Below the pieces are notes generated by a model. That model had not been told where the DNA came from and searched no databases. It saw nothing but the letters and a program-made list of their open reading frames with translations. DNA of 24,376 nucleotides from Bergeyella sp. (lineage in GTDB: Bacteria; Bacteroidota; Bacteroidia; Flavobacteriales; Weeksellaceae): the NCBI GenBank assembly GCA_032083825.1, contig DAMDNI010000015.1, forward strand, positions 1 to 24,376. The letters are read 5' to 3'. A program made the position numbers and the translations under genes. This document shows, piece after piece, positions 471-21,242 of the stretch (position 1 is the first letter of the stretch; every line of letters starts with the position of its first letter).

Positions 471-755
471 ATGGAGAACGGACATCTTCTGCCAAGTATT
501 GATATTGTACCACGCTTAATGAAAGTGTTTGCTATTAGTGCAGATCATCTTCTAAATGACAATGAAAGTTCTGTATTAGAGTTACAAAACCACAAACTCA
601 ACGAACAACTAATGCTCATTAATCAGTTGGACGAGAACGAGAAAAACGCTTTGATAAAGATTATAAACTCGATGCTAACGAAAAAAAGAACGAAATACCT
701 GCTGGAAGGAAAGATTTTTTTTAGAAAAATATTTTTTTATACTTTGGAATTATAA
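471..755 (+). pseudogene. 5'-truncated XRE-family HTH regulator remnant
   Basis: Translation starts ..ENGHLLPSIDIVPRLMKVFAISADHLL, which is only the second half of an HTH_XRE domain (the ...W-E-N-G-x-x-x-P-S-hh-x-L-hh-K-h-A-x-x-L-x-h-S-x-D-x-L-L pattern). The in-frame upstream sequence has a stop at 396-398 and no helix-2/3 (QxxLA) half in any frame I read. Confidence 0.5.
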
Positions 756-840
756 AAATATAAGTTTTGATTTATTTTTTTTTAATGATAAATACAAAAC
801 AAAAAGAGTGAAAACAAGCCTGCATTAATTTAATAAACAA

Positions 841-866
841 AAAACCTCGCATTTTGCGAGGTTTTT
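841..866. terminator. bidirectional rho-independent terminator between convergent genes
   Basis: aaaacctcgc-atttt-gcgaggtttt is a perfect 10-bp stem with T/A runs on both sides. It lies between the end of the plus gene (755) and the end of the minus gene (867). Confidence 0.6.
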
Positions 867-1238
867 TTACAAAACTGTATTATATTTCGATATAAGCAAA
901 TGATAAAGAAAGGAAGGTATTTGCTTATTGTAAACAACATCTTCTTTCCTTGTTCCATTATCATAATAGACGGTGTGTAATCCCATTACGTAGATATCCT
1001 TATGGATTTTGACAGTATAAAAACTTATACAATCTTCCGCCGTTGTTTCATTGATGAAGTATAAATCATCATTACTGAATAACAATAACCTGAAAGGCGA
1101 TTTGTTTTCAAGATATTTAAGCTTGTAACCACTGAATACTCTTATTAGTCTAATCTCTTTTATATCTCCCTGTTTAAACCCTTCGTTTATATTCTCTTTT
1201 ATAAAACGATTGGATATATAGTCAAATTCTCCTCTCAT
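867..1238 (-). CDS. hypothetical 123-aa protein; candidate cognate immunity protein of the upstream RHS C-terminal toxin
   Basis: Start is 2 nt after the stop of the RHS toxin gene on the same strand (classic toxin-immunity arrangement). No signal peptide or TM segment. No recognisable family by eye. Confidence 0.4.
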   Translation of the reverse strand: MRGEFDYISNRFIKENINEGFKQGDIKEIRLIRVFSGYKLKYLENKSPFRLLLFSNDDLYFINETTAEDCISFYTVKIHKDIYVMGLHTVYYDNGTRKEDVVYNKQIPSFLYHLLISKYNTVL

Positions 1239-1240
1239 AA

Positions 1241-4891: not shown

Positions 4892-4909
4892 AAATTAATT
4901 TGCGAATAT

Positions 4910-7900: not shown

Positions 7901-8494
7901 CTTATCATTAATATCTATGACCACTTTTAAATTATTGGTGGAAGAGACCTTCCATTCTCCATCTGATCCCAGATAAAATTTTCCGCTGTATCCCATAAAG
8001 TTAAATGTAAAAACATCCGGCTCATAATCAGGAAAATGGAGGGCATTATTAGCTAAACTCGACAAATATTGCGGAGAATTCCAATTGCTTGTGTTTAAAA
8101 TATCCTTATAGTAAAAATATCCATTCCAATCGTACCAAAATCCAGATTCACTTATCTTATAGTTCAATTCATCCGCTGCCTTGCCTCTTACAGATCTAGT
8201 TACAACACCACCAGCTTGTAAAGTCCAATTTTGTCCTACCCATCCCGGGACATCGTTAACTCGAACTCCTCCAGTATCATATGACATAGAAATATCCATT
8301 GGAATCCCTCCTTCTTCTAATTGATATATAGGAACATCGACATTTGCTCTTCCTGTACTTAAGTCCATTGACAAATCTCCATATTTGCCTAATGATGCAG
8401 CATTTGGAGATTGTATGTTGATAGGCATTTCTCTGTTTTGTGCTATTATAAAATAGAAAATAGAAATAAACATTAATAAATATAGCTTTTTCAT
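4910..8494 (-). CDS. large secreted YD-repeat protein (RHS-shell partner without RHS core or toxin); beta-rich N-terminal domain of unknown function
   Basis: Signal peptide MKKLYLLMFISIFYFIIAQ. C-terminal half carries YD-type repeats (YNLYDDVGNILQY, YTYHRGG, YTYDSRNRLQKITDKDNRTIKEWDYNY). Ends in a Cys-containing N/S/T-rich domain. 18-nt gap to the downstream RHS gene. Confidence 0.7.
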   Translation of the reverse strand: MKKLYLLMFISIFYFIIAQNREMPINIQSPNAASLGKYGDLSMDLSTGRANVDVPIYQLEEGGIPMDISMSYDTGGVRVNDVPGWVGQNWTLQAGGVVTRSVRGKAADELNYKISESGFWYDWNGYFYYKDILNTSNWNSPQYLSSLANNALHFPDYEPDVFTFNFMGYSGKFYLGSDGEWKVSSTNNLKVVIDINDKVQPNNYYYIAYNNQNNRTFPKVLGKITIIDDQGNKFIFGDLANQNSIEFTFQNFFDQIDTPLISSAWYLTKVYNKYDKLVYDLDYERGDYIAAFYDRNGFQSLKLTTGYYAGGGCAYGNNDGNKVYANGNLIIPSYLKKITTGSSKQISFNSTVNNSLKYGSNDSPIIDTFVKFRQDIQATGANWSQMDDSYFYYIRRDQNLNVLPTVTGGNEHIYPYLEALKWRKLTSLSVLSSDQNTLLTAAFSYNDNPNSRLRLDRITINNIDSKTPQAYSFEYNNFDSLPLFTSKNIDHFGYYKSAPFVLNYDNPSVHEPSRATDPNTVVYGTLSKITYPTKGYTRLFYEPHTYSRYVGNDLDLKQENGIIGGVRIRSMFDYDGVGIPQIKKFSYVTDQQSNQSSGILLQKNNYFLPDYKVPTTASGVTMYQSYFSISPIVYLSNLMGNTIEYSTVIEDNGKGTIFNHYSTYSDYPDFKNDTYIANDKNKFDPHTEYIYKRGRIKQRQYFDKSGGKVRQEDFSYQDTYNQSVKGFSYTSISPCAGVSNAPIVNGSSYNIYFSDFELVGKKITNYFSGGKSIEESETYSYTKNNNFGDNFLTSKTTTNPDKTIEESLFYPFHISNQVNTSLLDKHNFPIIQKETYLDSKNIGKNQSSYGFMPVVDQSSTLLAPSSQNAIDLNTNEEYDKINYNLYDDVGNILQYTPENSVPVSLVWGYNKTRIIAKVEGATYSQVKSYITDIVSSSNQMMANSNYSNDDLVSKLDNFRTNTNLKDYQTTTYTYHRGGIGLKTVTNPSGQRVNYTYDSRNRLQKITDKDNRTIKEWDYNYSSAPLPNIFFNAQKSQVFTRSNCGSNAIGGTYIYNVPEGKYISYSSQPDADQMAQNDINNNGQSAANINGSCTSFYCPVSFYFSGGGSVTVQNNNYYSLTLSFGTGPNSTNLPWTTGVRVATIQGTCRPSSDYNSYNGQIYYTIKTNGDIILRSHNGPLPNNTTFNYPLVFPVN

Positions 8495-8498
8495 GTAT

Positions 8499-10241
8499 TT
8501 ATTTTTTCACGATTTTAGCGTTAACGGACTTAGTTTTAGTTTGGGCGGTAACAATGTAGATCCCCTGTGGAAGTGAGCCCGTATTGATCCTTGTCACCTG
8601 TTGTTTGGTTTTAAGGGACTGCACCTGTCTTCCGCTCATGTCATGAAGGAAGATCTCAGCTTCTTCGTTTCTATTGTCTTCATTCCATACTGAACTTCCG
8701 ATTTCCACATATGCATAATCCTCCACAGGATTAGGATAAATTCTGATATCTTGTTTTTCAATTAATTGGTCAAGGTCTTTATCACCAAGCTTGACGATCT
8801 TCCAATTCTCTTCTCCCAACTGTTCTGCACTTGTTCCTGCAAGAAGAAAAGTTCCATCGTTTTGTAGCTTTGCACTTACCAATCGTTCTTCCTTTTTCTT
8901 TGATGTTCCTTCCACATATTTTCGCCATTCTTCTTTTCCGTTTGGATCTATATACAGCATCCAGAATTTTTCATCATCCTTCTTCAATTTTTCTTCTGCC
9001 TGTGTGTAGCCGCCTAAAAGAAAACCTTTGTCTTCGCTCTGATTGTCTTTTCCTGTCTTCCTGATTACATTCATACTCATCAGAACATCCCGGTTTCCAA
9101 AACTGTAGCTTTTCTGCCACCATTCATCCCCTGCATTGTCCAGTAAAATCAGCCAAAGGTCTGTGCCTTCCTTAATACTTTCTCTTTTATTTCCCGAAGA
9201 GCTGCTTCTGCTTTCCCCTCCAATCAAATAACCGTTATCGGTATAAGCTATGATTTTCGGACGGTCGTCACCTTTTCCTCCGTAAGTTTTCTGCCATTCT
9301 ACATTTGCATTCTTATCCAGTTTTACAATCCAGTAATCTCCTTCTCCGAAGCTTTCTTCTGTTTTGCCGATAAGCTCAGCCTGTGATTCAGAATCTGATA
9401 TTAATGAAGATAATAAATCAGTAGCATCATTTTCTTTTGTTGTGGATGTATAGGATGAATTAGACTGTTCTGAAGTATTTACAATTTTGGTATTGAGATC
9501 TGATTCTAAAGGAAATATCTTATTTTCTGTTTTTCCAGAATTGGAATAGATCAGAAGCAAACTTCCTCCATCAGGAGTAGCAATCATTTCCTGAACTTCA
9601 TCCAGGGCATTTCCTCCGAGAATAGTGGTGTTGATCAGCTTTCCTTCTTTATCAACCTTTGAAACGAATACATCCTTTGATCCAAATAGATTTTTATTGG
9701 AATTGATATTACCTGCGACAAAGAACCCCTGATCTACCGTCTGAACTACTGACGAAACTTCATCGTTGCTTTTTGTTCCAAGTGTTTTTTGCCATAATTC
9801 ATCACCGTTTTCATTAAGCCTTACGATCCATACATCAGAACCTCCGAGGTTGTTTTCTTTCTTATCTCCGGATTGGTTGGAGAATGAAGTCCCTGCCAAT
9901 AAAAATCCTCCTTCCTGCGTAGGAACGGAAGACATGAGGTAATCATGCCTTGAGCCTCCAAAGTATTTATCCCAGAGGATGCTTCCATCCTGGGATAATT
10001 TTACAACATGATAATCATATCCGGAATTTGTGTTATTAGTTGTCGGATGAGAATTGAGGGTTTTGCTCTGTATGGAGCTTCCTGAAAGGAGTATTTGCCG
10101 GTCTAAAGTGAGGGACATCGTGGAGAGAAAATCCTGGGTGGAGGATTTTAGGTCTTTCTGCCATCGGACATCCTGAGCCGAAGTATTGAGCATTCCAAAG
10201 AGAAAGAAGACTCCAAGGGAAAGATGTTTCATATAGTGCAA
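8499..10241 (-). CDS. T9SS (Por) C-terminal sorting domain protein with tandem beta-propeller-type repeats
   Basis: Signal peptide. At least 6 repeats of ..GGS..D..SS..QT.DGG..LAG.S.S..SGDK.E...GGSDVWIVRL...G..LWQKT.GG. C-terminal ~80 aa match the T9SS type-A sorting domain (IRIYPNPVEDYAYVEI...EIFLHDMSGRQV...LPQGIYIVTAQTKTKSVNAKIVKK). 4-nt gap to the next gene. Confidence 0.75.
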   Translation of the reverse strand: MHYMKHLSLGVFFLFGMLNTSAQDVRWQKDLKSSTQDFLSTMSLTLDRQILLSGSSIQSKTLNSHPTTNNTNSGYDYHVVKLSQDGSILWDKYFGGSRHDYLMSSVPTQEGGFLLAGTSFSNQSGDKKENNLGGSDVWIVRLNENGDELWQKTLGTKSNDEVSSVVQTVDQGFFVAGNINSNKNLFGSKDVFVSKVDKEGKLINTTILGGNALDEVQEMIATPDGGSLLLIYSNSGKTENKIFPLESDLNTKIVNTSEQSNSSYTSTTKENDATDLLSSLISDSESQAELIGKTEESFGEGDYWIVKLDKNANVEWQKTYGGKGDDRPKIIAYTDNGYLIGGESRSSSSGNKRESIKEGTDLWLILLDNAGDEWWQKSYSFGNRDVLMSMNVIRKTGKDNQSEDKGFLLGGYTQAEEKLKKDDEKFWMLYIDPNGKEEWRKYVEGTSKKKEERLVSAKLQNDGTFLLAGTSAEQLGEENWKIVKLGDKDLDQLIEKQDIRIYPNPVEDYAYVEIGSSVWNEDNRNEEAEIFLHDMSGRQVQSLKTKQQVTRINTGSLPQGIYIVTAQTKTKSVNAKIVKK

Positions 10242-10417
10242 GTTTTTACCTTTTGAAGGTAGCAGTTTCCCATGATCTTCAAAAGGGTGAAAACACCCAT
10301 TTTTAAGTGACTTTTGTCAACTATTTTTTAAACAGCTTATCATATACTATCTTAAAAACCTGTAAATGAGTACAATATATATTAAACGTAGTTTTTAAGA
10401 AGGATTTTATTTTTGAT

Positions 10418-10459
10418 CATTTTTTATGAAAAACCGGACATTTTTTATGAAAAACCGGA
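10418..10459. repeat. perfect 21-bp tandem duplication cattttttatgaaaaaccgga x2
   Basis: Directly visible at 10418-10438 and 10439-10459, ~180-220 nt upstream of the cargo operon start (10241) in an AT-rich promoter region. Confidence 0.8.
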
Positions 10460-10730
10460 AGAAAAAAAGAAATTCGCTCATTATATCACTATAATGAATG
10501 AATTTTGTTCACTAAAATAACAAGCAAAATGAAATAAATGGATAAGTGATGATTAAGAATAGTAGTATAAAACATTATAATATTTCCTGTAGGGTATCAT
10601 AATTTGTTCTTTTTAGAGGATATCTCTTAATAAAAGCATTACAAAATATCTTAATTTTAGTTACTTTTAAGCATCGAAAGTGAAAAAGAGTAATTTAAAT
10701 TTGAATTATATGAATCAGGAAGTTCAAAGG

Positions 10731-11969
10731 TTATCTTCTTATTTTTTTATGATTATGCTCTTCATTTCTTGAATTACTAATCCTCAAACTATCCTTATAT
10801 TTCTCTTCCAGCCATTTTTGACTTTGTATGTTTTCAATTTTCAAAATTTTGCTTTTCTCCATTTTATCATATTCAATACTCAGTTTAAGACTTTCAACTC
10901 TGAAGCTTTTAAAGTGTTGTGAAGAATAAATTTCTCCGCTGATATGGATTTCTTGCTTTTCAAGGAATGTTTTGATAAGTTCCGGTGGTAATCCCATCTT
11001 TTCACATTCCGTAACAATAGGAAGAGAATCCTTTATTTCAGGGTGATATTGTAATACTTTGTCAAAAACCTTATTCTGCTTTTCTAATGTATTTTCAAGT
11101 TTTGAAACTGAATCCTGCATCTTTCCTTTTTCTCTGTCATTATCAATCCTAAGAATGTTCATTTCTTTTTTCATTTGTTCATTTTCCTTTTCCAATTTCT
11201 TAGTTTTAGAACCCGTTATAGCATTCGCAAAATTTTCAACAATTCTTTTCGAGGATATATTTTTCTCAATGGCTTTCAATTCAGATTGCTTCTGATTCTT
11301 TTCCTTTTCCAACTGTTGATTTTGTTCATGGAGGTTTCGGTAATATTCAGATGTGGAAATATGTTTGGCTTCCGAACCCTCTATCCCTCTTCTTAATCCG
11401 TATTTTGCCATTGTTACAGCATAGGTATTTTGATAATGCTTCAGCTTATTTCTTGCCATTATATCATCAGCACACAACCTATTAGCATTTAAATTCTTCT
11501 TTTTATAAGTCTGAGGATTATTGTCTTTTTTTGCTTTTCTTCTTTCTCCTGTGACTATTGGAACTATGGTAGCGTGGATATGGGGCGTTTTTTCATCCAT
11601 ATGAAGAACAGCAGAAACCAAATTCTCTTCTCCAAAAGTTTCTTTCAGCCAATGAAGATTATCTTTACACCAGTTGCTCAATTGTTTATTGTTCTCAATT
11701 TCTTTCATCGTTTCATGAGTTCCGGACAACATAATACGAATGGCTCTCACTTGATTGGTTCCAATTTTTCTTTTCAGATTGGCGTTATCTAACCTGCATT
11801 GTATTGACGAAGTCCTGTTTTTGATTCCTTCAGGATAGGCAATCATTTCTTTATTGAGATGAGTTCGTGAAGCATCTGCATTTTTCGGATGGATGGTTCT
11901 TTCAATATGGGCTGACATTCCGGAGTCATTGCCTTTGGCTTTTTCTAAATGTAAAACGGTGTATGACAT
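10731..11969 (-). CDS. mobilization relaxase, MobV/Pre (Mob_Pre, plasmid recombination enzyme) family
   Basis: N-terminal domain has the LHMDEKTPHIHATIVP His-hydrophobic-His motif and MSYTVLHLEKAK start typical of MobV/Pre relaxases. Long coiled-coil C-terminal half. Confidence 0.8.
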   Translation of the reverse strand: MSYTVLHLEKAKGNDSGMSAHIERTIHPKNADASRTHLNKEMIAYPEGIKNRTSSIQCRLDNANLKRKIGTNQVRAIRIMLSGTHETMKEIENNKQLSNWCKDNLHWLKETFGEENLVSAVLHMDEKTPHIHATIVPIVTGERRKAKKDNNPQTYKKKNLNANRLCADDIMARNKLKHYQNTYAVTMAKYGLRRGIEGSEAKHISTSEYYRNLHEQNQQLEKEKNQKQSELKAIEKNISSKRIVENFANAITGSKTKKLEKENEQMKKEMNILRIDNDREKGKMQDSVSKLENTLEKQNKVFDKVLQYHPEIKDSLPIVTECEKMGLPPELIKTFLEKQEIHISGEIYSSQHFKSFRVESLKLSIEYDKMEKSKILKIENIQSQKWLEEKYKDSLRISNSRNEEHNHKKIRR

Positions 11970-12029
11970 ACTTCTTAAATTTAGTTGTTAAATAATTCGG
12001 GGGTTTCCAAAGGGGGAGCATTCCCCTTG

Positions 12030-12088
12030 GCTTATTGGGGCTTTTTTAGTGAAGTGCAACGGAGCGTTAAGAAAAAGCCCTAATAAGC
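12030..12088. promoter_or_regulatory. candidate oriT: 17-bp inverted repeat with 25-nt loop, immediately upstream of the relaxase gene
   Basis: gcttattggggcttttt (12030-12046) pairs with aaaaagccctaataagc (12072-12088) with 1 mismatch. Adjacent imperfect IR ccaaagggggagcattccccttgg (12007-12030). MobV-family oriTs typically sit upstream of mob. Confidence 0.35.
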
Positions 12089-12124
12089 TATGGCTTTTCT
12101 TTTCAAAAGCCTGCCATGCAGCCG

Positions 12125-13082
12125 TCACCTTTTTCTTCTGTAGGTATTTGTCTGTTCAGGATTTCTGCTCTCGTCAACATTGCTGCCTAAACTATTCTTC
12201 AAATCACTTTTGCTTTTGAGATAATCGTTCAGGTCTTTATGGTCGGAATAGGTTACTGAAAAATCTTTTGCTTCCGGAAATTCTTCCATTAATTTTGAAG
12301 TGGCTTTTTTTCCGGCTGGATCATTGTCAAGTAGCAAACTTGGTCTTAGCTTGTTTTCTTTTATCCATTCGACAGCTTTATTGAGATTGGAAAGGGAATT
12401 CAGGATAACACAATCTACTTTAAACTCTTTTTCATTCTTTAAAGTAAGATGGGACAGGAAATCAAACATACCTTCGTAAACCATGCAGATTCTACTTTCC
12501 TGATTGGAGCCACTTCCCTCAACCACAGAAATATCCTGCGAAGTACAACCTTTGAAAAATTCGGAACGAAGATGATAGCCTCCATTGTTACTGAGCCGGC
12601 CCAAAGCAGTGTATTTCCTGTCACCGATGGAATAATGAATCTCCTGCAGATATTTCCCCGCAGTATCAATATTGATTTTACGCTCCTGTAAATAGTGCAA
12701 CAATTTTGAATCCTGAAGAGATTGTATTGTATCAATATTGACATTGGATTGTCTTGTGGTCATTTGATTTCCTATTTTCTCTTTCTCGTTATTGAAGATA
12801 GAATCTGTTTTCAGATTTAAGTCATTCAAGAAAGAAAGAAAGTGCTTCGGAAATGTTTCTTGCTTTTTGCATGGCAATAACTAGGTCAATAATGGTTCCA
12901 CCTTGAGCAGAGCCATGGTCGTACCATAGATTCAGTTTGTCATCAACTTTCATCGATGCCGTTCTTTCCGTTCTCAAGGGAGAGAGGTAAAAATGGTTGT
13001 ATCGAACAATTCTTTGCGGTTGATACCCTAAAGCACTTAGAAAATCGATAATCCTGATATTTTTTGCTGTCTTTGTATTCAT
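12125..13082 (-). pseudogene. toprim-domain DNA primase (Bacteroidota mobile-element type), interrupted by a frameshift inside an (AAAG)3-4 tract
   Basis: N-terminal ORF (13082->12822) gives the characteristic ..IIDFLSALGYQPQR..YLSPLRTERTASMKVDDKLNLWYDHGSAQGGTIIDLV..EALSFFLE then stops. The toprim body continues in another frame (..FLSFLNDLNLK.. to 12125). The frame change falls in aagaaagaaagaaag at 12829-12843. Confidence 0.65.
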
Positions 13083-13172
13083 TTATTTTGGATTTATTGT
13101 GTATTCTTTTTCTTTCAACAGCAATTTTGCTATTGAAAGAAAAATCAGTATTGGGTTATGGGGGTTCGATGA

Positions 13173-13220
13173 CTGGTTTAGTCTGGTTTACTAATATATA
13201 TTAGTAAACCAGACTAAACC
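13173..13220. repeat. 48-bp perfect palindrome tggtttagtctggtttacta-atatatat-tagtaaaccagactaaacca
   Basis: Exact reverse-complement symmetry verified base by base. Lies in the 163-nt spacer between the primase and ATPase genes. Preceded by a second IR ctttcaacagcaa/ttgctattgaaag (13116-13143). Confidence 0.8.
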
Positions 13221-13245
13221 AATAGACCATTGAATGATTTTGGAC

Positions 13246-14283
13246 TCAGTAGTAAAAGTTATGGTTGAATTTGTAAAATCTCCCTTCTTTAAAAATCATC
13301 GTTTTGTTTTGACAAAAGACCTTCAGTTTTTTAGCCTTATTGGTTCCAAAATCATATCCGAAATGAGTATAGGATTCTATGAGCTTTGAAATCAATTCTC
13401 CATAGGAAAGTGATTTTTGGTTTCTGAAAGCAAGCGATAGTGCTTCCCGATGAATTTGTTCCGAGATTTCGTGATAATCAAATCCCTTGGCTTGACCTGT
13501 CTGTATATGATAATCATCCACAGGCTCAGGCAGACCATCGTCATCAATCCTGAAAGCAAAAGGCTCAAACTCAACATCACGAATGCTCATCGGTTTTACA
13601 ATAGAGATATTCGGGTCTTTTTCATCCCTTACCACTTGTAGTATAGTTTCGGCTTTATTCAGCAGTTCAGTTCCCAAATGTCCCCGTGCATTATCATCCG
13701 TTTTATTGACATGTAAAACCGTGTGAATATGCAACTGATAGACTTCTGTCCAGATCATCAGTTTAGAAATAATCTCGGTAGATTCATTCGGGGAATTGAT
13801 ATCGAATACCAAATCTCTGATACCGTCAATAATAACCAATCCCAATGAAGTGGTGCTTTTGATTGCTTCTTCTATAATCTGAATACGGGTTGAAGGATTG
13901 AATCTTCTCAAACAAACAAATTCCAAATTTTTGGGTTGAAATTCCTTGCTCATTCCCGAAAGTTCAATTATCCTTGACAATACTTTCTGACTGTGATACG
14001 GACTTTGTTCGGTATCGAAGTAAATGATTTTCCTCTTATCATCCGGCATTGCTGCATTGTAATTGAGCATTAATCGACAGACTAGAGCAGCTGCGGTCAT
14101 CGCTGTAACACTAAAGGTCTTTCTGCTTTTGGCTTTTCCAACGGTAGCCGAAAAATTTCCAAGTGTTCCTACAACAGATTCATCAATACGGATGACCACA
14201 GGCGGATATTCAAATTTATCGGTAATCAAAAGCCTTGAGGAATGCCATAGACTCTTTATGTCTTTGTTGCTATCCATCATCAT
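13246..14283 (-). CDS. P-loop/RecA-like ATPase of the mobile-element replication module (helicase/primase-associated)
   Basis: Deviant Walker A TVGKAKSRKT and Walker B-like LGLVIIDGIRDL. Start ATG overlaps the stop of the upstream HTH gene (ATGA). Conserved position between excisionase-like and primase genes as in Bacteroidota CTn/IME backbones. Confidence 0.55.
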   Translation of the reverse strand: MMMDSNKDIKSLWHSSRLLITDKFEYPPVVIRIDESVVGTLGNFSATVGKAKSRKTFSVTAMTAAALVCRLMLNYNAAMPDDKRKIIYFDTEQSPYHSQKVLSRIIELSGMSKEFQPKNLEFVCLRRFNPSTRIQIIEEAIKSTTSLGLVIIDGIRDLVFDINSPNESTEIISKLMIWTEVYQLHIHTVLHVNKTDDNARGHLGTELLNKAETILQVVRDEKDPNISIVKPMSIRDVEFEPFAFRIDDDGLPEPVDDYHIQTGQAKGFDYHEISEQIHREALSLAFRNQKSLSYGELISKLIESYTHFGYDFGTNKAKKLKVFCQNKTMIFKEGRFYKFNHNFYY

Positions 14284-14582
14284 TTTCTTCCTCCTGCTTT
14301 ACGTCCTGCCAATTCTAATGCAAGGTTTACATCCACAATTATTTTACGTCCTATCTGTGTGATGGCTTTATCTATTTTTCCACTCTGCTTGATACGGTTG
14401 GCTGTGGGAATGCTGCAACCGAAAAGGCGTGCGATTCCGGCGATTCCGTAAACGTGTTTTTTTATGGAATTATTGAGGGGAACAGACTCAGCTTCTTTAT
14501 GCACATCGGTCTTCTGAAGATAGAGAAATTCTTCACCTGTCATCTGCCAAAGAGGCTTTTGCTTAAGTTCGGTTAGGTTCAT
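14280..14582 (-). CDS. excisionase-like HTH DNA-binding protein (Bacteroidota mobile-element family)
   Basis: KHVYGIAGIARLFGCSIPTANRIKQSGKIDKAITQIGRKIIVDVNLALEL is the HTH_17/MerR-like excisionase motif seen next to CTnDOT-type integrases. Confidence 0.65.
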   Translation of the reverse strand: MNLTELKQKPLWQMTGEEFLYLQKTDVHKEAESVPLNNSIKKHVYGIAGIARLFGCSIPTANRIKQSGKIDKAITQIGRKIIVDVNLALELAGRKAGGRK

Positions 14583-14697
14583 ATTCTTTTACAATGTTAT
14601 GGTTAAACAAGCCTTGTACTTCGGCGTTATTGTTCGAACACATTGCAAATCTATGACGGGAAAAAGGTGGTAAGGAGGTGGATTCCTGAAATTTATA

Positions 14698-14714
14698 TCA
14701 TTGATAATCAATGA
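14698..14714. promoter_or_regulatory. 7-bp inverted repeat tcattga-taa-tcaatga; candidate operator upstream of the xis-ATPase-primase genes
   Basis: Perfect IR ~115 nt upstream of the HTH gene start (14582), in a non-coding gap. Confidence 0.3.
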
Positions 14715-14759
14715 CTATTAAAAATATTTTAAGTGGTAAAAGTGGTTGCTTATGGAATA

Positions 14760-15803
14760 TCAAGAAATAGTATTGAATATTGACTCAATAACGCCTTTAA
14801 ATTCTTTATTTTTCTTATTGCCTTCTTCAGAACTTACGGATACCATTTTATATTTAGAATTGTAAGTGTCCCATTTAATTCCTAATTGATTGAGTAGAAC
14901 AGTTCTCCATTCTTTATTTTCATCAGATTGAAGAACATCATAAAGTTTTGAAATTAAATGATAAGTCCGCTCTTTTTCACCATAATTAATTTTCAGCTTA
15001 GCAATCGTTGGTCGCAAATTGAGAATGTTATAAAAATCTACAACACCCAAATTCTCGAATTGTATTCCATTACATTCTTTATGAATGGATGATATTAATT
15101 GCATATCAAAATACTCTCCCTGTTTTTGTTCGGAATTTTCCTCGGAAGTTGGTCTTATTTCATCAAAAAAATAATTATTTAAAACCAATAGAAAAGAACT
15201 TTCCATTTCGCAAATCTTTCCAAAAACATTATCGGCAAACTTTAGGGATTCTTGACGCAATTTTTCTTTTTCCTGATAAAGTGCATCAAGTTTTTGTTGT
15301 TCGATCTTATACAAGTTGGAAAATTTGTTTATTTTTTCTTCAAGCTCTCTAACTCTAACTTCATCACCTTTCCAACTTGCCGATTCCAAAGAATTTTTTG
15401 CATCCCTTAATTCTATATACTGATTATTGGTATGTTTTTCTTGGATTTTTATTTTGGAGTCAATGGAATTGGCTCTATCCCAGCAAATTTCAAATGTATC
15501 TATATCATCTAAAGAATTTCTATGGTCATTATACTTTTCGATATTCTTTTTTATCACTTTCCGCAATATCGAAAAAACCTGTACTTGTTTTTCCTTGTCT
15601 TTGGAAGTGATGAAATTTAAAACTGCTTTTTCAAAATTTTCAAGATTTCTGAATTGATTAAAAAAAGTAACAATTTGTTGTTGTTCCTCAAAATGCAATA
15701 TTTTGTCTTTCAGTATGTTTTGATATATTTCGTCTAATTTCGTGTATTTCGGCAATATATCCATAATTTGATATAGAGAACCTTGGGTTTTATTTTCTTC
15801 CAT
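14760..15803 (-). CDS. hypothetical 347-aa coiled-coil-rich protein (element accessory/cargo gene, unknown function)
   Basis: Long uninterrupted ORF with Lys/Glu-rich predicted coiled-coil segments, in the same orientation as int and xis. No motifs I recognise. Confidence 0.6.
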   Translation of the reverse strand: MEENKTQGSLYQIMDILPKYTKLDEIYQNILKDKILHFEEQQQIVTFFNQFRNLENFEKAVLNFITSKDKEKQVQVFSILRKVIKKNIEKYNDHRNSLDDIDTFEICWDRANSIDSKIKIQEKHTNNQYIELRDAKNSLESASWKGDEVRVRELEEKINKFSNLYKIEQQKLDALYQEKEKLRQESLKFADNVFGKICEMESSFLLVLNNYFFDEIRPTSEENSEQKQGEYFDMQLISSIHKECNGIQFENLGVVDFYNILNLRPTIAKLKINYGEKERTYHLISKLYDVLQSDENKEWRTVLLNQLGIKWDTYNSKYKMVSVSSEEGNKKNKEFKGVIESIFNTIS

Positions 15804-15811
15804 TTGTCAAA

Positions 15812-17101
15812 TTATAATTGATTAAATTTATCCATTGCACTGGCTTTGATTTCGTCAGCAATATCAATATAGGGTTTCATTGCCTTATAATCACTGTGTC
15901 CCGTCCATTTCATGACAACCTGCGCAGGAATACCCAATGAAAGGGCATTACAAATAAATGTCCGCCTTCCTGCATGAGTTCCCAAAAGAGCATACTTTGG
16001 TGTCACTTCATCGATTCGCTTATTTCCTTTATAGTAGACCTCCCGTACAGGCTCGTCAATTTCCGCCAATTCCGCCAGTTCTTTCAAATAATCGTTCATC
16101 TTCTGATTGGTGATGACCGGAAGAACTTTATCATACTCAAAATGAACTTCTTTATACTTGCCCAGTATTGCTTTGCTGTGGTTGTTTAACTCGATAATTA
16201 AACTGTCCGCAGTTTTTACAGTGGTAATTTCGATATGGTTGTCTTTTACATCACTGCGCCTCAAATTGAATACATCTGAATATCTAAGCCCTGTAAAACA
16301 CTGGAACAAAAAAACATCACGAACTCTCTCCAAGTATTTTTTTGTTTCCGGAATTTTGTATTCTCTCAATTTCGTCAATTCTGCCCAGGTCAAAAATATA
16401 ACCTTCTTTTGAGTGGTCTTTAATTTTGGTTTAAATAATTCAAAGGCAAAATTGGAGGTGTATCCTTTCTTTTTACTCCAGCGAAGAAACCATTTTAGAA
16501 ATCCTATCTGCTTACCGATGGTACTATTTCGAAAGCTCTTCTTGTCACGGAGATAGTTTACAAATTCAGTGAGTTTGTTCTCGTCCCATGATTCGAAAGT
16601 CAAATTTTTATCAAAATCTTCCAAATGCTTTTTCGTGGTGGCAAATTTTTCATAGGTTGCTTCTGTCCAATTGTTATGAACTCCGCAGTCTCGTACAAAT
16701 TCATCAAATTTACCCATGAACGAAAGTATTGAGGATTCTAATTCAAGACTATTAGGCAAATCCTTATTTTGCCGATTATTGAATGCTGCTTTAAGTTGTT
16801 CAGGAGTAGGAATGATTTCGTTTACTTCACATTCTTTGAAAATATCCTGTATATCCGAATAATATTTTAAAAGATCTGAATTGATTTCGGCTGCGGTCTG
16901 CTTAAGTTTATTGGTACAGCCATTTTTTACACGCTGCTTGTCTTTATCCCATTTGGAAAAATCGATACGGTAGCCTGTGGTAAATTCTATCCTTTTATTA
17001 TGGTAAATAACACGCATACGGATAGGTACATTTTCAATCACAGGAAGACCGTCTTTCTTTCTTTTTTCAAGCGCAAAAACTATATTTCGTTTGATATTCA
17101 C
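15812..17101 (-). CDS. tyrosine site-specific integrase (CTnDOT/NBU-like, with N-terminal arm-binding domain)
   Basis: N-terminus RNIVFALEKRKKDGLPVIENVPIRMRVIYHNKRIEFTTGYRIDFSKWD is typical of Bacteroidota integrases. C-terminal catalytic motifs are present (..LTWAEL.., HAGRRTF, HSDYKAMKPYIDI with Tyr). Likely GTG start at 17101. The longest ORF reaches 17158 via TTG. Confidence 0.85.
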   Translation of the reverse strand: MNIKRNIVFALEKRKKDGLPVIENVPIRMRVIYHNKRIEFTTGYRIDFSKWDKDKQRVKNGCTNKLKQTAAEINSDLLKYYSDIQDIFKECEVNEIIPTPEQLKAAFNNRQNKDLPNSLELESSILSFMGKFDEFVRDCGVHNNWTEATYEKFATTKKHLEDFDKNLTFESWDENKLTEFVNYLRDKKSFRNSTIGKQIGFLKWFLRWSKKKGYTSNFAFELFKPKLKTTQKKVIFLTWAELTKLREYKIPETKKYLERVRDVFLFQCFTGLRYSDVFNLRRSDVKDNHIEITTVKTADSLIIELNNHSKAILGKYKEVHFEYDKVLPVITNQKMNDYLKELAELAEIDEPVREVYYKGNKRIDEVTPKYALLGTHAGRRTFICNALSLGIPAQVVMKWTGHSDYKAMKPYIDIADEIKASAMDKFNQL

Positions 17102-17120
17102 GGGTGTATAACATATTAAT

Positions 17121-17148
17121 CGACACCCAAATTTACACCCAATTATTG
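17121..17148. repeat. right copy of 'acacccaa' direct-repeat pair (candidate att/arm site)
   Basis: gacacccaaatttacacccaattattg just upstream of the integrase start. See 396-423. An inverted gggtgt is also present at 17103-17108. Confidence 0.4.
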
Positions 17149-17361
17149 AGATATACAAAGATTTTTTATGATACTCAACTATAACAACAAATTCGTATTA
17201 TACCTGATTATCAATATTTTGATATTCTATAATCATCTAATAGGGTTCAGGAGAAAGAGCCTTATGGAGTACAAAACTGACATTCATTATATAAAAAATG
17301 TCCTGATTTTTCAGCGCAGACGTTCAAAAAAATCAAATGAAACTGAAGGACAATTTTTTCT

Positions 17362-17434
17362 TGCAGAAATGGCGAAACGGTAAACGCGCTTGATTTAGAA
17401 TCAAGATTTTGAGAGTTCGAATCTCTCTTTCTGT
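17362..17434 (+). tRNA. class-I (short variable arm) tRNA with anticodon TAG; Leu anticodon but non-Leu architecture
   Basis: Acceptor gcagaaa/tttctgt (G-U at 1-72). D stem gcga/acgc. Anticodon stem cttga/tcaag with loop ttTAGaa. 5-nt variable loop. T arm gagag-ttcgaat-ctctc. Discriminator a. Confidence 0.5.
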
Positions 17435-17441
17435 ACTACTT

Positions 17442-17514
17442 TGATTTGTAGTGTAATTGGATAGCACACAAGACTTTGACTCTTGTTGTTCAGGTTCGAA
17501 TCCTGACAAATCAA
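17442..17514 (+). tRNA. tRNA-Gln (anticodon TTG)
   Basis: Acceptor tgatttg/caaatca (U1-A72 as in bacterial tRNA-Gln). D stem gtgt/gcac. Anticodon stem caaga/tcttg with loop cTTTGac. T arm tcagg-ttcgaat-cctga. Confidence 0.75.
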
Positions 17515-17519
17515 CATTT

Positions 17520-17596
17520 GGATAAATGGTGTACAAGGTGTGGCACGTCAGACTGAAAATCTGAAGGTATTGGTTCGATTCCGATTTTATCCACCA
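17520..17596 (+). tRNA. tRNA-Phe (anticodon GAA), CCA encoded
   Basis: Acceptor ggataaa/tttatcc. Anticodon stem tcaga/tctga with loop ctGAAaa. T arm attgg-ttcgatt-ccgat. Discriminator a then cca. Confidence 0.8.
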
Positions 17597-17640: not shown

Positions 17641-18126
17641 ATGGAAACACAACAAGAAATCTGGCAAAATTTAAAAGGAATATACTTCCGAAAACCTATT
17701 ACAGAATTGGTGGAAGAAGCCATCATCAGAGAACATGCTTTGGGAAATACACTTAAAGTGTGTATCGGTTCGGATTCTCATGTATATGGTGAAAGTATCC
17801 ATTATGCAACCGCTGTTGTGTTTATCCGAAAAGGAAAAGGTGCATTCACTTTTATCCGAAAACAAAAAGAAATTAAAACCATCAGCATCAAAGAACGAAT
17901 GTTGAACGAAGTCAATAAATCCGTAGAAATCGCATACACAATCTGCGAAATTCTAGAAAAATACAATATGGAGATGGAAGTTCATGCCGATATCAACACC
18001 GATCCTGATTTTAAATCCAATGCCGCGTTGAAAGATGCGATGGGATATATTTTAGGAATGGGATATACCTTCAAAGCAAAACCATATGCTTTTGCAAGCT
18101 CCAATTGTGCAGATTTGATTGTGTAA
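17641..18126 (+). CDS. YkuK-family (DUF458) RNase H-like fold protein
   Basis: 161 aa. KVCIGSDSHVYGESIHYATAVVF, MEVHADINTD and a C-terminal MGYTFKAKPYAFASSNCADLIV parallel the B. subtilis YkuK layout (GTDSQ...HIDVG...MGY..K.KP.SYAASS.AD) as I recall it. Confidence 0.65.
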   Translation: METQQEIWQNLKGIYFRKPITELVEEAIIREHALGNTLKVCIGSDSHVYGESIHYATAVVFIRKGKGAFTFIRKQKEIKTISIKERMLNEVNKSVEIAYTICEILEKYNMEMEVHADINTDPDFKSNAALKDAMGYILGMGYTFKAKPYAFASSNCADLIV

Positions 18127-18158
18127 TTAACAATTAAACAACTTAAAAATATAAAATT

Positions 18159-18479
18159 ATGAGACGAGAAGTATTACAAAGATTCCTTACCAATACAGAT
18201 GAAACCGGAAGATTCATTGTAAAATCTTCCGTCACAGGAATCACTTATTATATTGAACCACTTTACAGAGGAAAACCTTTGCAATGGGGAGATATTGATC
18301 CTGCTACAAAACAGCTTACCGGAAATTACGGAAGTAAAAATACTGGAGCTGTTATGGAAAAAGAATCTTTACTAACCAAAGAAAACGGTTTCGAAAATGT
18401 AGGATATTTCAAAGGAAGTCCTTTTGGAGAAATCGACAGACGAGATAAAGAACATGCAGAGAAAATGGGATTAGCATAA
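18159..18479 (+). CDS. hypothetical 106-aa protein
   Basis: ORF with plausible spacing (32 nt after YkuK stop). Its stop is 2 nt before the next gene's ATG. No recognisable motifs. Confidence 0.55.
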   Translation: MRREVLQRFLTNTDETGRFIVKSSVTGITYYIEPLYRGKPLQWGDIDPATKQLTGNYGSKNTGAVMEKESLLTKENGFENVGYFKGSPFGEIDRRDKEHAEKMGLA

Positions 18480-18481
18480 AA

Positions 18482-18784
18482 ATGAAAAAATTATTGTTCT
18501 TAGATGATATCAGGAATCCGATTGATGTTTTCGGATATACATTTAATCCATTGTTTCAAAATGATAATTGGATTATTGTAAGACGATTTCAAGATTTTAA
18601 AACTTGGATTACTGCAAACGGTTTACCTGATATCATTTCTTTCGACCATGATTTGGCGGATGGAAAAAATGAAAATGAAAAAACAGGTTACGATTGTGCA
18701 AAATGGTTGGTAGAATACTGCTTGAAACATAAAAAGTCTTGTCCTGATTTTATCTGCCATTCTATGAATCCTGTTGGAAAATAA
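18482..18784 (+). CDS. small receiver-like domain protein (resembles the family annotated as cyclic-phosphate processing receiver, CPR-like)
   Basis: 100 aa. MKKLLFLDDIR N-terminus, SFDHDLADG...GYDCAKWLVEY...HSMNPVGK pattern recalled from CPR/receiver-like small proteins. Assignment is from memory and needs HMM confirmation. Confidence 0.45.
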   Translation: MKKLLFLDDIRNPIDVFGYTFNPLFQNDNWIIVRRFQDFKTWITANGLPDIISFDHDLADGKNENEKTGYDCAKWLVEYCLKHKKSCPDFICHSMNPVGK

Positions 18785-18825
18785 AATATCGAAAAACTAT
18801 TAATACAATTTAAAAATTTAAAACA

Positions 18826-19377
18826 ATGAATACAACAGAAAATATATTAGTCCTCGATATTGAAGCAACTTGTTGGGAAAACAGCAAAGCAGCCCAAGGT
18901 CAGGAAAGTGAAATTATAGAAATAGGCGTTTGTCTACTCAACACAAAAACAGGAAAAATTTCTAAAAACGAAGGAATTTTAATAAAACCAATGTATTCAA
19001 AAGTCAGTCCGTTTTGTACGGAACTTACTTCCATAACTTCGGAAATGCTTCAAAAAGAAGGAATTTCTTTAGGAGATGCTTTTGATATTTTGAGGGACAA
19101 TTACGATTCTGAAAATTTAACTTGGGCAAGTTACGGAAATTATGACCTCACAATGCTGAAGAGACAAAGCGATCGATTTGGGGAAGATTATCCTTTTGCT
19201 TACGAGCATATTAATGTGAAAACGTTATTTGCAGAACTGCATCCAATCCGTAAAAGCGTTGGAATGGCAAGTGCATTGAAAGCATTAAATATTCCTTTAG
19301 AAGGAACGCATCACAGAGGTGTGGACGATGCTAAAAATATTGCAAAAATTCTTTTTTGGTGTTTAAATCAAAATTAA
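18826..19377 (+). CDS. DEDDh-family 3'-5' exonuclease (KapD/ERI-1/oligoribonuclease-like)
   Basis: Exo I LVLDIEATC (D-x-E), EIIEIG. Exo II YGNYD. Exo III HRGVDDAKN (H-x4-D). Confidence 0.8.
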   Translation: MNTTENILVLDIEATCWENSKAAQGQESEIIEIGVCLLNTKTGKISKNEGILIKPMYSKVSPFCTELTSITSEMLQKEGISLGDAFDILRDNYDSENLTWASYGNYDLTMLKRQSDRFGEDYPFAYEHINVKTLFAELHPIRKSVGMASALKALNIPLEGTHHRGVDDAKNIAKILFWCLNQN

Positions 19378-19383
19378 TTTTCA

Positions 19384-19416
19384 CTACGCAAAAAGATTGC
19401 GTAGATGTATTTTTAC
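19384..19416 (+). terminator. rho-independent terminator after the 4-gene cluster
   Basis: ctacgcaa-aaaga-ttgcgtag 8-bp stem followed by atgtattttt. Confidence 0.55.
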
Positions 19417-19638
19417 TTTGCATCAGAATTTGAAATCAACACTAAAATTAAGAAATAGTTTTAGTCAAAATATCAGACAAGTCTTGTTGAGTGTTTCTGT
19501 ACAACACCATTGCAGAACGTTTTGTTGAGAAACATCATTCGGTTTTGTTCAACTTGATTTGAAGGTTTGAGGATAACCAAAAATTCTCACTAAGTTCTAT
19601 GTATGGAGGTTCGAGTCCTCCCTGTGAAATCACAGTAG

Positions 19639-19707
19639 CTAAATTGGTATAGCAATGGAAATTTTAGGATGCGCAGGTTCGAATCCTGCTCTCAATTCGC
19701 TTGAGAT
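19639..19707 (+). tRNA. degenerate tRNA-like module: acceptor, canonical D arm and T arm but no proper anticodon arm
   Basis: atcacag-ta-gcta-aattggta-tagc D arm and gcagg-ttcgaat-cctgc T arm. The 3' acceptor tctcaat does not pair with the 5' strand. Middle region lacks a 5-bp anticodon stem. Confidence 0.25.
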
Positions 19708-19709
19708 AA

Positions 19710-19787
19710 CTCAGTTGGTTAGAGTACTACGCTTTTACCGTAGATCCGAAATAGACTCAAAATCTATTTCTCCGAGTTTCATATTTC
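19710..19787 (+). tRNA. tRNA-Lys(TTT)-like with aberrant T arm (probable pseudo-tRNA)
   Basis: cttgaga-ta-actc-agttggtta-gagt-a-ctacg-cTTTTac-cgtag is a textbook 5' two-thirds. The T arm is replaced by aatag-actcaaaat-ctatt (no TTCRA). 3' acceptor tctccgag matches only imperfectly. Confidence 0.3.
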
Positions 19788-20144
19788 TCTAAAAAATATG
19801 ACCATTAGGGAAAAACAATGCTTTTGTCAGTTGTTCAATCCACACTCTGAAAAAGCCTGAAAATGAAATTTTTCCGAAAAATGAATTTTAAATAACTAAT
19901 GAATAGAAAAAAGATAAAATTTTGAATGAAAATTGAAATTGATTGAATACGAAAAAAAACGCGAGCGAAGCGAGCGTCGATAAAACGTACTGATTTCATT
20001 TCCTTTTTAAGTTTAAAAAACATCCGATTTCTACATTATTTTTTAAAACTCAAAATTTCACAGAACATTTCATTTCCGCCAAATTCAGAAGATAAAAACA
20101 CTGTTTTTCCTTTTTTTTAATTGAATAAAAAAAATATAGAAATC

Positions 20145-21242
20145 ATGATCAATAACGTAAAAATTAAAACCTATCAAAAAGGTCTTGTCTTCAAAGATCG
20201 AAAATTAATCGACATTTTAAACGAAGGCCAATATTGGATTTTCGGAAACAAAAAAGTACACATCCACGAAATGATTTTACCATTAATCAACGGAGAAGAC
20301 AACAACCTTTTATTGAAAAATGAAAATCTTGCCGATGTATTGGAAATCGTTGAAGTTCAAGATAACGAAATCGTTCTTTTATACGAAAAAGGAATCTTCA
20401 AAGATGTTTTAAAAACCGGACAATACGCATATTGGAAAGGAATCATCGAACGAAACTTCGTAAAAATCGATTTGAATAAAGTGGAAATCACCGAAAACAT
20501 TTCGAATTCTATTTTAGAGAACAACAAACTTCATGCATATGTTCGGAAAATTGTTGTTGCGAATCAATACAGAGGTTTATTGTTTGTGGACGGAAAGTTA
20601 GAAAAGGTTTTAGAAGCCGGTTCTTATTATTTTTGGAATAACTCCATCGGAATTGAAATTCGTTCCGTTGATACCCGAATCCAACAAATGGAAATCGCCG
20701 GTCAGGAATTGTTAACCAAAGATAAAGCCAATTTGCGTTTGAATTTTCAAACTCGTTTCCAGATAACAGATGCGGTAAAAGCATTAACCGGAAACAAAGA
20801 ATACGACAAACAATTGTATACTTTGATGCAATTAGCACTTCGTGAATACGTTGGAAAATTAACTTTGGACGAATTGCTTGCCAACAAAGAAAGCGTGGGT
20901 TCAGAAGTTTTAAATTCCATTGGAAATAAAGCTGAAGAATTAGGTTTAAAAATCAGCGATGCCGGAATTCGAGACATTATTTTAACTGGAGAAATGAAAG
21001 ACATCATGAATCAGGTTTTGATTGCCGAAAAGAAAGCACAAGCCAATTCCATCATGCGTCGTGAAGAAACTGCTGCAACCCGAAGCATGTTGAACACCGC
21101 AAAAATGATGGAAGAAAACGAAGTTCTTTGGAAGTTAAAAGAAATGGAATACATGGAAAAAATCGCCGACAAAATTGGAGATATCACCGTTTCCGGAAAT
21201 TCTAATATCGTCACTCAATTGAAGGAAATCTTCACCAAATAA
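20145..21242 (+). CDS. SPFH/band-7 (stomatin/flotillin-like) domain protein with N-terminal triplicated beta-rich repeat
   Basis: C-terminal half RKIVVANQYRGLLFVDGKLEKVLEAGSYYFW...LRLNFQTRFQITDAVKALTGN...LALREYVGKLTLDELLANKESV...LGLKISDAGIRDIILTGEMKDIMNQVLIAEKKAQAN is SPFH-like. ATG at 20145 preferred over the upstream TTG. Confidence 0.8.
   Translation: MINNVKIKTYQKGLVFKDRKLIDILNEGQYWIFGNKKVHIHEMILPLINGEDNNLLLKNENLADVLEIVEVQDNEIVLLYEKGIFKDVLKTGQYAYWKGIIERNFVKIDLNKVEITENISNSILENNKLHAYVRKIVVANQYRGLLFVDGKLEKVLEAGSYYFWNNSIGIEIRSVDTRIQQMEIAGQELLTKDKANLRLNFQTRFQITDAVKALTGNKEYDKQLYTLMQLALREYVGKLTLDELLANKESVGSEVLNSIGNKAEELGLKISDAGIRDIILTGEMKDIMNQVLIAEKKAQANSIMRREETAATRSMLNTAKMMEENEVLWKLKEMEYMEKIADKIGDITVSGNSNIVTQLKEIFTK

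Follow-up and report, generated by a model that had tools for sequence, protein, structure and literature searches.

A conserved RNA with two permuted tRNA-shaped modules is predicted upstream of Band-7 genes across Bacteroidota

The 24,376-nucleotide (nt) stretch of DNA analysed here (the window; Bergeyella sp., assembly GCA_032083825.1, contig DAMDNI010000015.1) carries, just upstream of a gene for a Band-7/SPFH protein, a region that an earlier note had read as a chain of elements resembling transfer RNA (tRNA). Comparison with relatives demonstrates that this region belongs to one conserved, folded non-coding RNA containing two predicted tRNA-shaped modules that could not be charged, and the conservation of this architecture, both capping hairpins included, spans Chryseobacterium, Flavobacterium, Proteiniphilum, Chitinophagales, and Cytophagales. 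Positions 19595-19768 would form the core of a larger structured RNA of about 390 nt (about 19463-19855); all coordinates are those of the whole window, and all elements of the RNA are on the + strand. Among the options raised in the earlier note, a structured tRNA-mimic RNA is the one borne out, by covarying permuted modules in 37 Bacteroidota relatives. What that note missed is that the RNA is larger, that it has a Band-7 partner, and that its tRNA-like layout is permuted in the manner of the bacterial Y RNA YrlA.

In both modules, the order of elements is T arm, capped acceptor hairpin, TA (U8-A9), and D arm. Module 1 (19595-19660; helices 1-4 pair at 83-100%) is permuted at the anticodon loop, where it is opened, and its flanking strands, TTCTAT at 19595-19600 and ATGGAA at 19655-19660, pair to form its "anticodon stem." Within these strands lie a 4-nt variable loop (GTAT, 19601-19604), T arm 1 (GGAGG-TTCGAGT-CCTCC, 19605-19621), capped acceptor hairpin 1 (CTGTG-AAAT-CACAG, 19622-19635), U8-A9 (19636-19637), D arm 1 (GCTA-AATTGGTA-TAGC, 19638-19653), and A26 (19654). 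Module 2 (19661-19743; helices 5-8 pair at 95-100%) is permuted in the variable loop and is entered through its variable region, a 12-nt linker (19661-19672), which is followed by T arm 2 (GCAGG-TTCGAAT-CCTGC, 19673-19689), capped acceptor hairpin 2 (TCTCAA-TTCGC-TTGAGA, 19690-19706), U8-A9 (19707-19708), D arm 2 (ACTC-AGTTGGTTA-GAGT, 19709-19725), and A26 (19726). This module retains a complete anticodon-like hairpin (CTACG-CTTTTAC-CGTAG, 19727-19743), with an intact CUUUUAC loop and the triplet UUU, and 3' of the modules stands a further hairpin with a highly conserved loop sequence (AATAG-ACTCAAAAT-CTATT, 19750-19768). Folded in this way, each module can form a tRNA elbow and L-shape without a free 5' end or a CCA 3' end. 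The sequence strings on which the earlier description was built are all present, in the order given and on the + strand, but its coordinates were shifted by 6-19 nt (T arm 1 occupies 19605-19621 rather than starting at 19611, and "atcacag" runs from 19629 to 19635 rather than starting at 19639), and its modules, framed as a D arm followed by a T arm, were out of register with the conserved units of T arm, capped acceptor hairpin, and D arm.

Evidence for the permuted architecture comes from an eight-helix model tested on a MAFFT alignment of 37 diverse Bacteroidota sequences made without structure fitting. In this alignment 96.6% of the cells were paired, compared with 37-49% in controls whose 3' partners were slid by 1-3 columns; compensatory changes occurred at 34 of the 41 pairs (300 cells), and none of 500 shuffles attained the observed values. 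Capping hairpins 1 and 2 paired at 96.9% and 95.5%, respectively, with compensatory change at every pair (7 of 7 in hairpin 1). The conventional acceptor pairing, which would join the 3' strand of hairpin 1 to the 5' strand of hairpin 2, stood at 48.8% versus 43-50% in the slid controls, and, as this is background, there is no ordinary tRNA acceptor stem here. The features that support the tertiary structure of tRNA are also kept, with U8 and A14 invariant in both modules and G18-G19, the T-loop, and nt 26 (A26) retained. In module 1, the last base of the variable loop 5' of T arm 1 is the equivalent of nt 48, and it covaries with its D-loop partner, nt 15, as a Levitt pair (G:C in 18 sequences, A:U in 16, and other combinations in 3), which argues that D arm 1 belongs with T arm 1 and not with T arm 2. 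R1, a covariance model derived from relatives, gives the window 142.9 bits (E=2.5e-42), which places the pattern well outside chance, and finds the RNA in 77 loci at 68-168 bits. Genuine tandem tRNA genes match the same model weakly (16-74 bits), a cross-match that hints at descent of the RNA from a tRNA array.

ARAGORN called no tRNA at 19600-19790, in keeping with the earlier statement that none of the elements scores as a normal tRNA; that statement goes slightly too far, since the Rfam tRNA model gave a partial match of 32 bits at 19706-19768 (model positions 7-64), above its gathering score of 29. At relaxed thresholds, a second tRNA match (25.8 bits) was found at 19636-19689, and the best match of all was to YrlA (RF02553; 36.6 bits, E=2.9e-6, 19643-19758). 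With the partial tRNA match excepted, no family in Rfam 15 was reached on the RNA at gathering scores, and neither Pedo-repair (RF01715) nor any other known Bacteroidota RNA motif gave an Rfam match in 19350-20150 at E values up to 10. Since the RNA is otherwise unmatched at gathering scores, a family model for Rfam could be drawn from the alignments of the Band-7-linked RNA. In some Flavobacterium loci (L040, L045, L055, L057, and L058), module 1 carries an anticodon hairpin of its own together with a long variable arm, which accounts for a tRNA being called by ARAGORN inside the RNA there.

It had also been suggested that the region consists of decayed tRNA genes or of att-site scars stacked by repeated integration at a tRNA target, and the setting lends this some color: the locus lies 3' of a tRNA array, a mobile element has integrated into a nearby tRNA gene, tandem tRNA genes match the RNA model weakly, and a segment containing T arm 2 (19672-19690) is identical at 19 of 19 positions to the T arm (258-276) of a weakly scoring tRNA-Pro at 212-284. 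This last identity was considered as an att repeat and dropped; relatives carry other T2 stems, and it is therefore taken as a coincidence. Neither decay nor scarring accounts for a permuted architecture conserved across the phylum with compensatory changes in every helix, the capping hairpins among them, or for tRNA-type acceptor pairing at background. The same architecture is moreover kept in loci without any mobile element or integrase, and the true integration scar of the window is a tRNA-Glu gene split at 353/17264. We accord this explanation next to no probability. Because relatives carry the same mimic, the further prospect that ordinary intact tRNA genes would be found at this site in them, with the window holding point-mutated copies, falls away as well.

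Structure is also predicted on both sides of the modules. Conservation begins about 140 nt 5' of T arm 1, and a conserved 5' domain (19463-19591), folded with RNAalifold from 30 Flavobacteriia and Bacteroidia sequences, would comprise a long-range helix, P1 (19473-19482 with 19552-19562), which encloses the hairpin P2 (19488-19495 with 19503-19509), the helix P3 (19512-19517 with 19543-19548), and the hairpin P4 (19523-19526 with 19531-19534), and outside it another hairpin, P5 (19569-19574 with 19583-19588). Pairing in this domain reached 95.9%, a figure that is somewhat generous, as the structure was derived from the same alignment, compared with 41-50% in slid controls, and 22 of its 36 pairs showed compensatory changes; in Cytophagia and Chitinophagia the 5' region differs. 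On the 3' side, the hairpin at 19750-19768 is conserved in Chryseobacterium and Flavobacterium (GACTCAAAATC). The earlier note was right that the AATAG string is there, but what it took for a replaced T arm is a separate conserved hairpin, which is kept even in the single-module variant L033. Beyond it, an H-type pseudoknot with an A-rich third loop is probable at 19774-19800, its stem A pairing GAG (19774-19776) with CTC (19787-19789) and its stem B pairing CATATTT (19780-19786) with AAATATG (19794-19800). This topology recurs in other clades with different stems (GCATCA/TGATGC; CGGGTATT/AATATCCG; AGAAG/CTTCT with CACCA/TGGTG), and our search found a pseudoknot in most clades, yet 31% of shuffles also gave some knot, and it is for this lack of specificity that the pseudoknot is graded as probable and no higher. 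A conserved 3' hairpin region (CTTTTGTCAG ... CTGAAAAAG, 19821-19855) stands out by alignment conservation, is paired in the minimum-energy fold, and may be part of the mature RNA.

The RNA is consistently linked to Band-7. In the window, the Band-7/SPFH ("slipin family") protein is encoded at 20145-21242 on the + strand (365 amino acids; Pfam Band_7, 4.7e-27); a transmembrane segment is not evident by eye, its nearest homologues are from Chryseobacterium, and its closest solved relatives are stomatins. Using an alignment of this protein, we fetched 80 loci from one-genome-per-species contigs that span Chryseobacterium, Epilithonimonas, Flavobacterium, Proteiniphilum/Petrimonas, Chitinophagales, and Cytophagales. 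In 76 of them, Band-7 is preceded on its own strand by a two-module RNA whose T arms stand 57-90 nt apart, 356-763 nt upstream of the gene, and the remaining four comprise two single-module variants (L033 and L076) and two contigs that end before the site. Of these variants, L033 still has the 5' domain as well as the 3' pseudoknot. The search was also run from the side of the RNA, by scanning metagenome contigs with a 23-nt degenerate motif of the 5' domain: 39 of the 44 hits had two T arms at the expected distance, and 29 of the 30 loci with enough downstream sequence carried a same-strand Band-7 gene, the exception being a chimeric contig. One scan of viral contigs with the same motif, directed at a phage origin, gave a single chance match inside an open reading frame (ORF) and no hit to the RNA model, and that idea was dropped. 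A second form of Band-7, about 503 amino acids long and extended at its N terminus, is seen in some Chryseobacterium species (L035, L036, L039, and L046-L056) and is often followed by DUF6493, DUF7824, and DUF7825 proteins.

Band-7 is thus the constant genomic partner of the RNA, and the upstream nucleases are not. The earlier note had placed the elements at the end of a nuclease cluster, and genes of this kind do lie upstream in the window, all on the + strand: an RNase H-like protein (PF04308, 17641-18126), a 106-amino-acid protein of unknown family with no Pfam, NCBIfam, or PADLOC match (18159-18479), a cREC ("cyclic-phosphate processing receiver") domain protein (PF20274, 18482-18784), and a DEDDh 3'-5' exonuclease (18826-19377), the domains being assigned with Pfam. 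Together they form a variable cassette (17641-19377), of which related loci hold differing subsets, and it is the downstream Band-7 gene that stays. In the 3.5-kb flanks of the 80 loci, we counted DEDDh exonuclease in 38, metallophosphoesterase in 27, RNase H-like protein in 17, Rsr/TROVE (downstream) in 15, RtcB in 12 (following Band-7, mostly in Cytophagia and Chitinophagia), cREC in 9, Rnl2-type ligase in 8, a divergent WYL-WCX-PhyH regulator in 8, and RlaP nucleotidyltransferase in 7, and the RNA-Band-7 pair remains constant while these other neighbors shuffle. Gene syntax of this kind was reportedly described by Burroughs and Aravind as an "RNA repair island." The 106-amino-acid protein recurs in such islands of Chryseobacterium and Flavobacterium and in metagenome loci.

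Taken together, these data lead us to consider it probable, with ample room for doubt, that the RNA acts in RNA repair, either as a scaffold or as a mimic of tRNA, on a platform formed by Band-7. By analogy with Ro60 and its Y RNAs, the RNA and an oligomeric, cytosolic Band-7 protein would form a ribonucleoprotein, in which the 5' domain, 3' hairpin, and pseudoknot would be the protein-binding part that anchors the RNA to the Band-7 oligomer. The tRNA-shaped modules would then offer a tRNA-like surface to those enzymes of the islands that recognize tRNAs in repair or turnover (RtcB or Rnl2 ligase, phosphoesterases, cREC, and the DEDDh exonuclease), and the repair or turnover of damaged tRNA would be organized or regulated by the RNA. 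The idea of a scaffold with a cognate RNA is that of Burroughs and Aravind (2016), as cited in a preprint (bioRxiv 10.1101/312249). Several points weigh against this reading. We infer the physical association of the RNA with Band-7 from gene order, and the structure predicted for Band-7 from a 13-sequence alignment (mean predicted local distance difference test score, 47) was not good enough to look for a surface that binds RNA. The evidence for the pseudoknot is weak. No RNA ligase is present in the window's island, nor is RtcB found anywhere in the window, and what we call repair may therefore, at this locus, really be degradation or surveillance. Finally, the Band-7 start codon lies at a long and variable distance with no terminator detected in between, so that the RNA, instead of existing as a molecule of its own, could form the leader of the Band-7 mRNA.

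This last possibility can be weighed against the signals that surround the RNA. The Bacteroides/Flavobacterium -7 promoter consensus is TAnnTTTG, and a near match, TTACTTTG, lies at 19413-19420; its TTTG core is conserved in the alignment (Proteiniphilum has the variant TATCTTTG), and we infer a transcription start near 19426. Immediately 5' lies a palindrome, CTACGCAAAAAGATTGCGTAG (19384-19404), a candidate operator that also scores like a terminator of the gene before it. Chryseobacterium, Flavobacterium, Proteiniphilum/Petrimonas, and Arcicella all conserve the sequence of this palindrome and not just its pairing, including at loci where a different gene, or one read in the opposite direction, stands upstream. 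The palindrome and box are candidates for an operator and promoter of the RNA, which is probably transcribed from its own promoter. Between the 3' region of the RNA and the start of Band-7 there is no terminator-like site in the window, which makes co-transcription with the Band-7 gene possible. If the RNA acted in cis, as the 5' leader of the mRNA for Band-7, a tRNA-handling factor could bind or cut the mimic and so control the downstream gene; the constant upstream position on the same strand would suit this, as would the unterminated spacer and the placement of the conserved promoter-like box and palindrome upstream of the RNA and not of Band-7. However, the spacer is long, with about 290-380 nt separating the RNA from the start codon in the window according to the 3' end assumed. 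It varies between loci (with T2 356-763 nt from the start) and is poorly conserved between genera, and no expression platform lies beside the ribosome-binding site. The related RNAs YrlA and YrlB are, in addition, described as trans-acting RNAs bound by Rsr, and are encoded beside rtcB in many bacteria (bioRxiv 10.1101/312249; PMC4201824). A cis-acting leader therefore has, in our estimation, a slim chance of being the correct explanation.

Among characterized RNAs, the closest in layout is YrlA, which binds Rsr and whose tRNA-like domain consists of a T arm, an acceptor-like hairpin, and a D arm, with the hairpin taking the place of the acceptor stem and a loop replacing its free 5' and 3' ends (PMC4201824). 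The RNA described here shares this order of domains closed by flanking strands, which it has twice, as well as the conserved tertiary nucleotides of tRNA, the nt15:nt48 covariation, and a neighborhood of RNA-repair genes. It differs in having two tandem modules where YrlA has one, a full anticodon-like arm in module 2, an extra 5' domain, and a 3' hairpin and pseudoknot, in lacking the terminal Ro-binding stem, and in being linked to Band-7 and not to Rsr. Were the RNA a genuine Y RNA of the YrlA type, with Rsr (Ro60) as its partner and its position next to Band-7 incidental, this would explain both the best Rfam match and the presence of Rsr a few genes downstream in 15 of the 80 loci. But the 36.6 bits fall short of the YrlA gathering score of 69; rsr is expected within about 4 kb on the same strand, and no sizeable ORF of the 24-kb window has a TROVE domain; and the motif GNCGAAN0-1G, the likely Ro60 contact, is absent from 19426-19870 and, in the 180 nt that precede T arm 1, from 74 of 77 relatives, being present there in the other three. 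The RNA fails three of the four testable features of YrlA (score, rsr linkage, and Ro-binding motif). Furthermore, at L011, the sole rsr locus in which our scan extended past that gene, rsr is directly followed by a separate YrlA-like RNA with one module (7919-8024; 36.6 bits, below the Rfam gathering score), which marks the Band-7-linked RNA as a distinct entity, and Band-7 is the constant partner of the latter. We therefore regard membership in the Rsr-bound YrlA family as very unlikely. Weaker R1 matches occur at the same place after rsr in five other rsr loci, and the RNA of L011 suggests that the current Rfam model misses Y RNAs of Bacteroidota. Directly after rsr, on the opposite strand, the orphan RNA Flavo-1 (RF01705) occurs in five related Chryseobacterium loci (minus strand; L002 7260-7348, L006 7153-7241, L028 7028-7116, L039 7469-7558, and L046 7500-7589), and in the relatives it was found only near rsr.

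A second candidate identity is the predicted "b7a-tRNA." Burroughs and Aravind are said to have proposed in 2016 that b7a-tRNA is a cofactor of a Band-7 scaffold, often with RtcB. As cited in the preprint, their prediction was of a Band-7-associated tRNA-like RNA next to RtcB, "strongly resembling an authentic tRNA," and it also included YrlA-like RNAs beside Band-7, none of which had been validated (bioRxiv 10.1101/312249). The RNA shares with this prediction its tRNA-like character and its place beside a Band-7/SPFH gene in RNA-repair islands; it differs in its capped acceptors, its permuted and doubled modules, its length of about 390 nt, and the lack of RtcB in the window. Its own resemblance to tRNA lies in the D arms, T arms, and one anticodon arm and in the partial 32-bit Rfam match, with acceptor pairing at 48.8%. 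By genomic definition, the RNA is best matched by b7a-tRNA, a comparison made with the description in the citing preprint alone, and it may be b7a-tRNA, their YrlA adjacent to Band-7, or neither. In the searchable literature, which does not cover the defining paper, b7a-tRNA was mentioned only in that preprint, as unvalidated (bioRxiv 10.1101/312249).

The anticodon-like loop of module 2 bears on what the mimicry might be for. It is 7 nt long in 77 of 78 sequences, with C32 and U33 conserved and position 37 mostly a purine, whereas the triplet itself carries almost zero information and varies among close relatives with identical stems. UUU is found in about 22 sequences, and GUA, GUU, GUC, ACG, GUG, UUG, UCA, and AUU in others; AUU and UCA are non-natural anticodons, and one loop lacks U33. 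An unconstrained triplet is what a shape mimic would show; it does not fit a tRNA that decodes, or an imitation of any single tRNA. A rival role for the RNA would be that of bait or sensor for anticodon nucleases, in which module 2, an unchargeable mimic of a complete tRNA, would be cut by invading ribotoxins, and the cut RNA, held on Band-7, would be religated or used as a damage signal that switches the island on. The intact loop with its conserved C32, U33, and purine 37 is in line with this, as are the variation of the triplet between close relatives, the capped acceptors that exclude aminoacylation, and the real tRNA arrays and repair enzymes that adjoin the RNA. In Salmonella, the rsr-yrlBA-rtcBA operon is reportedly induced by damaged tRNAs (PMC7790460). 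On the other side, the non-natural triplets and the loop without U33 speak for relaxed constraint more than for targeted mimicry, module 1 usually has no anticodon loop, and no nuclease or toxin partner was identified; a PADLOC scan of five neighboring proteins gave nothing specific and no defense-system match beyond a generic DEDDh hit. We give this role a modest chance of being correct. In a more far-reaching form, to which we attach only a small chance, the non-chargeable tRNA double would sit on a cytosolic Band-7 cage as both bait and damage sensor for anticodon-cutting toxins, a vault-like guard of tRNA integrity: the toxins would cut its anticodon-like loop instead of, or along with, the cellular tRNAs, the particle would hold the cut RNA, and the island ligase would reseal it, or else expression of the island and use of the spare tRNA array would be triggered.

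Vaults offer one comparison. The vault particle combines the major vault protein (MVP), which has an SPFH-like shoulder, with the TROVE protein TEP1 and a vault RNA (bioRxiv 10.1101/872010). Common to both systems are an SPFH-type oligomeric protein, a small structured RNA, and TROVE proteins in the same functional neighborhood. In contrast, the vault RNA is unrelated in sequence and structure, and the Band-7 protein is stomatin-like and not MVP.

Permuted tRNAs offer a further parallel. In the circularly permuted tRNA genes of red algae, the 3' half is encoded before the 5' half, and the products mature to real tRNAs, whereas the tRNA-like structures of viruses and plants have a free, chargeable 3' end. 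The 3'-half-first layout and the mimicry of tRNA shape are shared with the RNA of the window, in which, however, the acceptor is closed by a 4-5-nt loop and the anticodon triplet is unconstrained. The modules might themselves be circularly permuted tRNA genes, from which an excised segment, closed into a circle by RtcB or another RNA ligase and opened again at the acceptor loop, would yield a functional spare tRNA. Beyond the layout, which equals that of the red-algal genes, RtcB or Rnl2 is present in many islands, and the YrlA of Mycobacterium smegmatis can reportedly be cleaved by RNase P and given CCA in vitro (PMC4201824). Yet the capping loops in the window are only 4-5 nt long and the acceptor stems 5-6 bp, the ligase is absent from the window, module 1 has no anticodon loop, and the triplets drift, some to non-natural ones, in an otherwise identical body with no change of identity elements. 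We find it highly improbable that functional tRNAs are produced in this way. What is new about the RNA is that its predicted modules are doubled and permuted in different ways, that it has additional domains, and that it ranges across the phylum, and it is best viewed as a little-known relative of bacterial Y RNAs.

The tRNA-like domains of bacterial Y RNAs are known, while the purpose of the mimicry is a standing question, and that soluble SPFH/Band-7 proteins take part in RNA repair has only been proposed computationally. The locus provides a phylum-wide RNA in culturable Chryseobacterium and Flavobacterium, with strong secondary structure, two kinds of permutation, and a single constant protein partner, and the ideas of a Band-7 scaffold, a bait for anticodon nucleases, and spare tRNAs can all be tested directly there. 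Should the vault-like guard prove true, it would constitute a bacterial vault-like ribonucleoprotein dedicated to tRNA integrity.

Two further observations concern the surroundings of the RNA. Genuine tRNA arrays lie just 5' of the Band-7/RNA-repair islands in about half of 36 scanned loci, far more commonly than tRNA density predicts and with up to 18 tRNAs in one locus; they include those at 17363-17596 and 1-353 of the window and those of L015, L059, L072, L074, L075, L080, and others, and they may represent spare tRNAs. In the window, a mobile element of about 16.9 kb (about 354-17263) is inserted in the 3' end of the tRNA-Glu(TTC) gene mentioned above, whose pieces lie at 290-353 and 17264-17275 and whose joined flanks give a tRNA called by ARAGORN. 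The cargo of the element includes an integrase (15812-17158), DUF3853, AAA_25, and Toprim proteins, a Mob_Pre relaxase, and large RHS/DUF6443 proteins.

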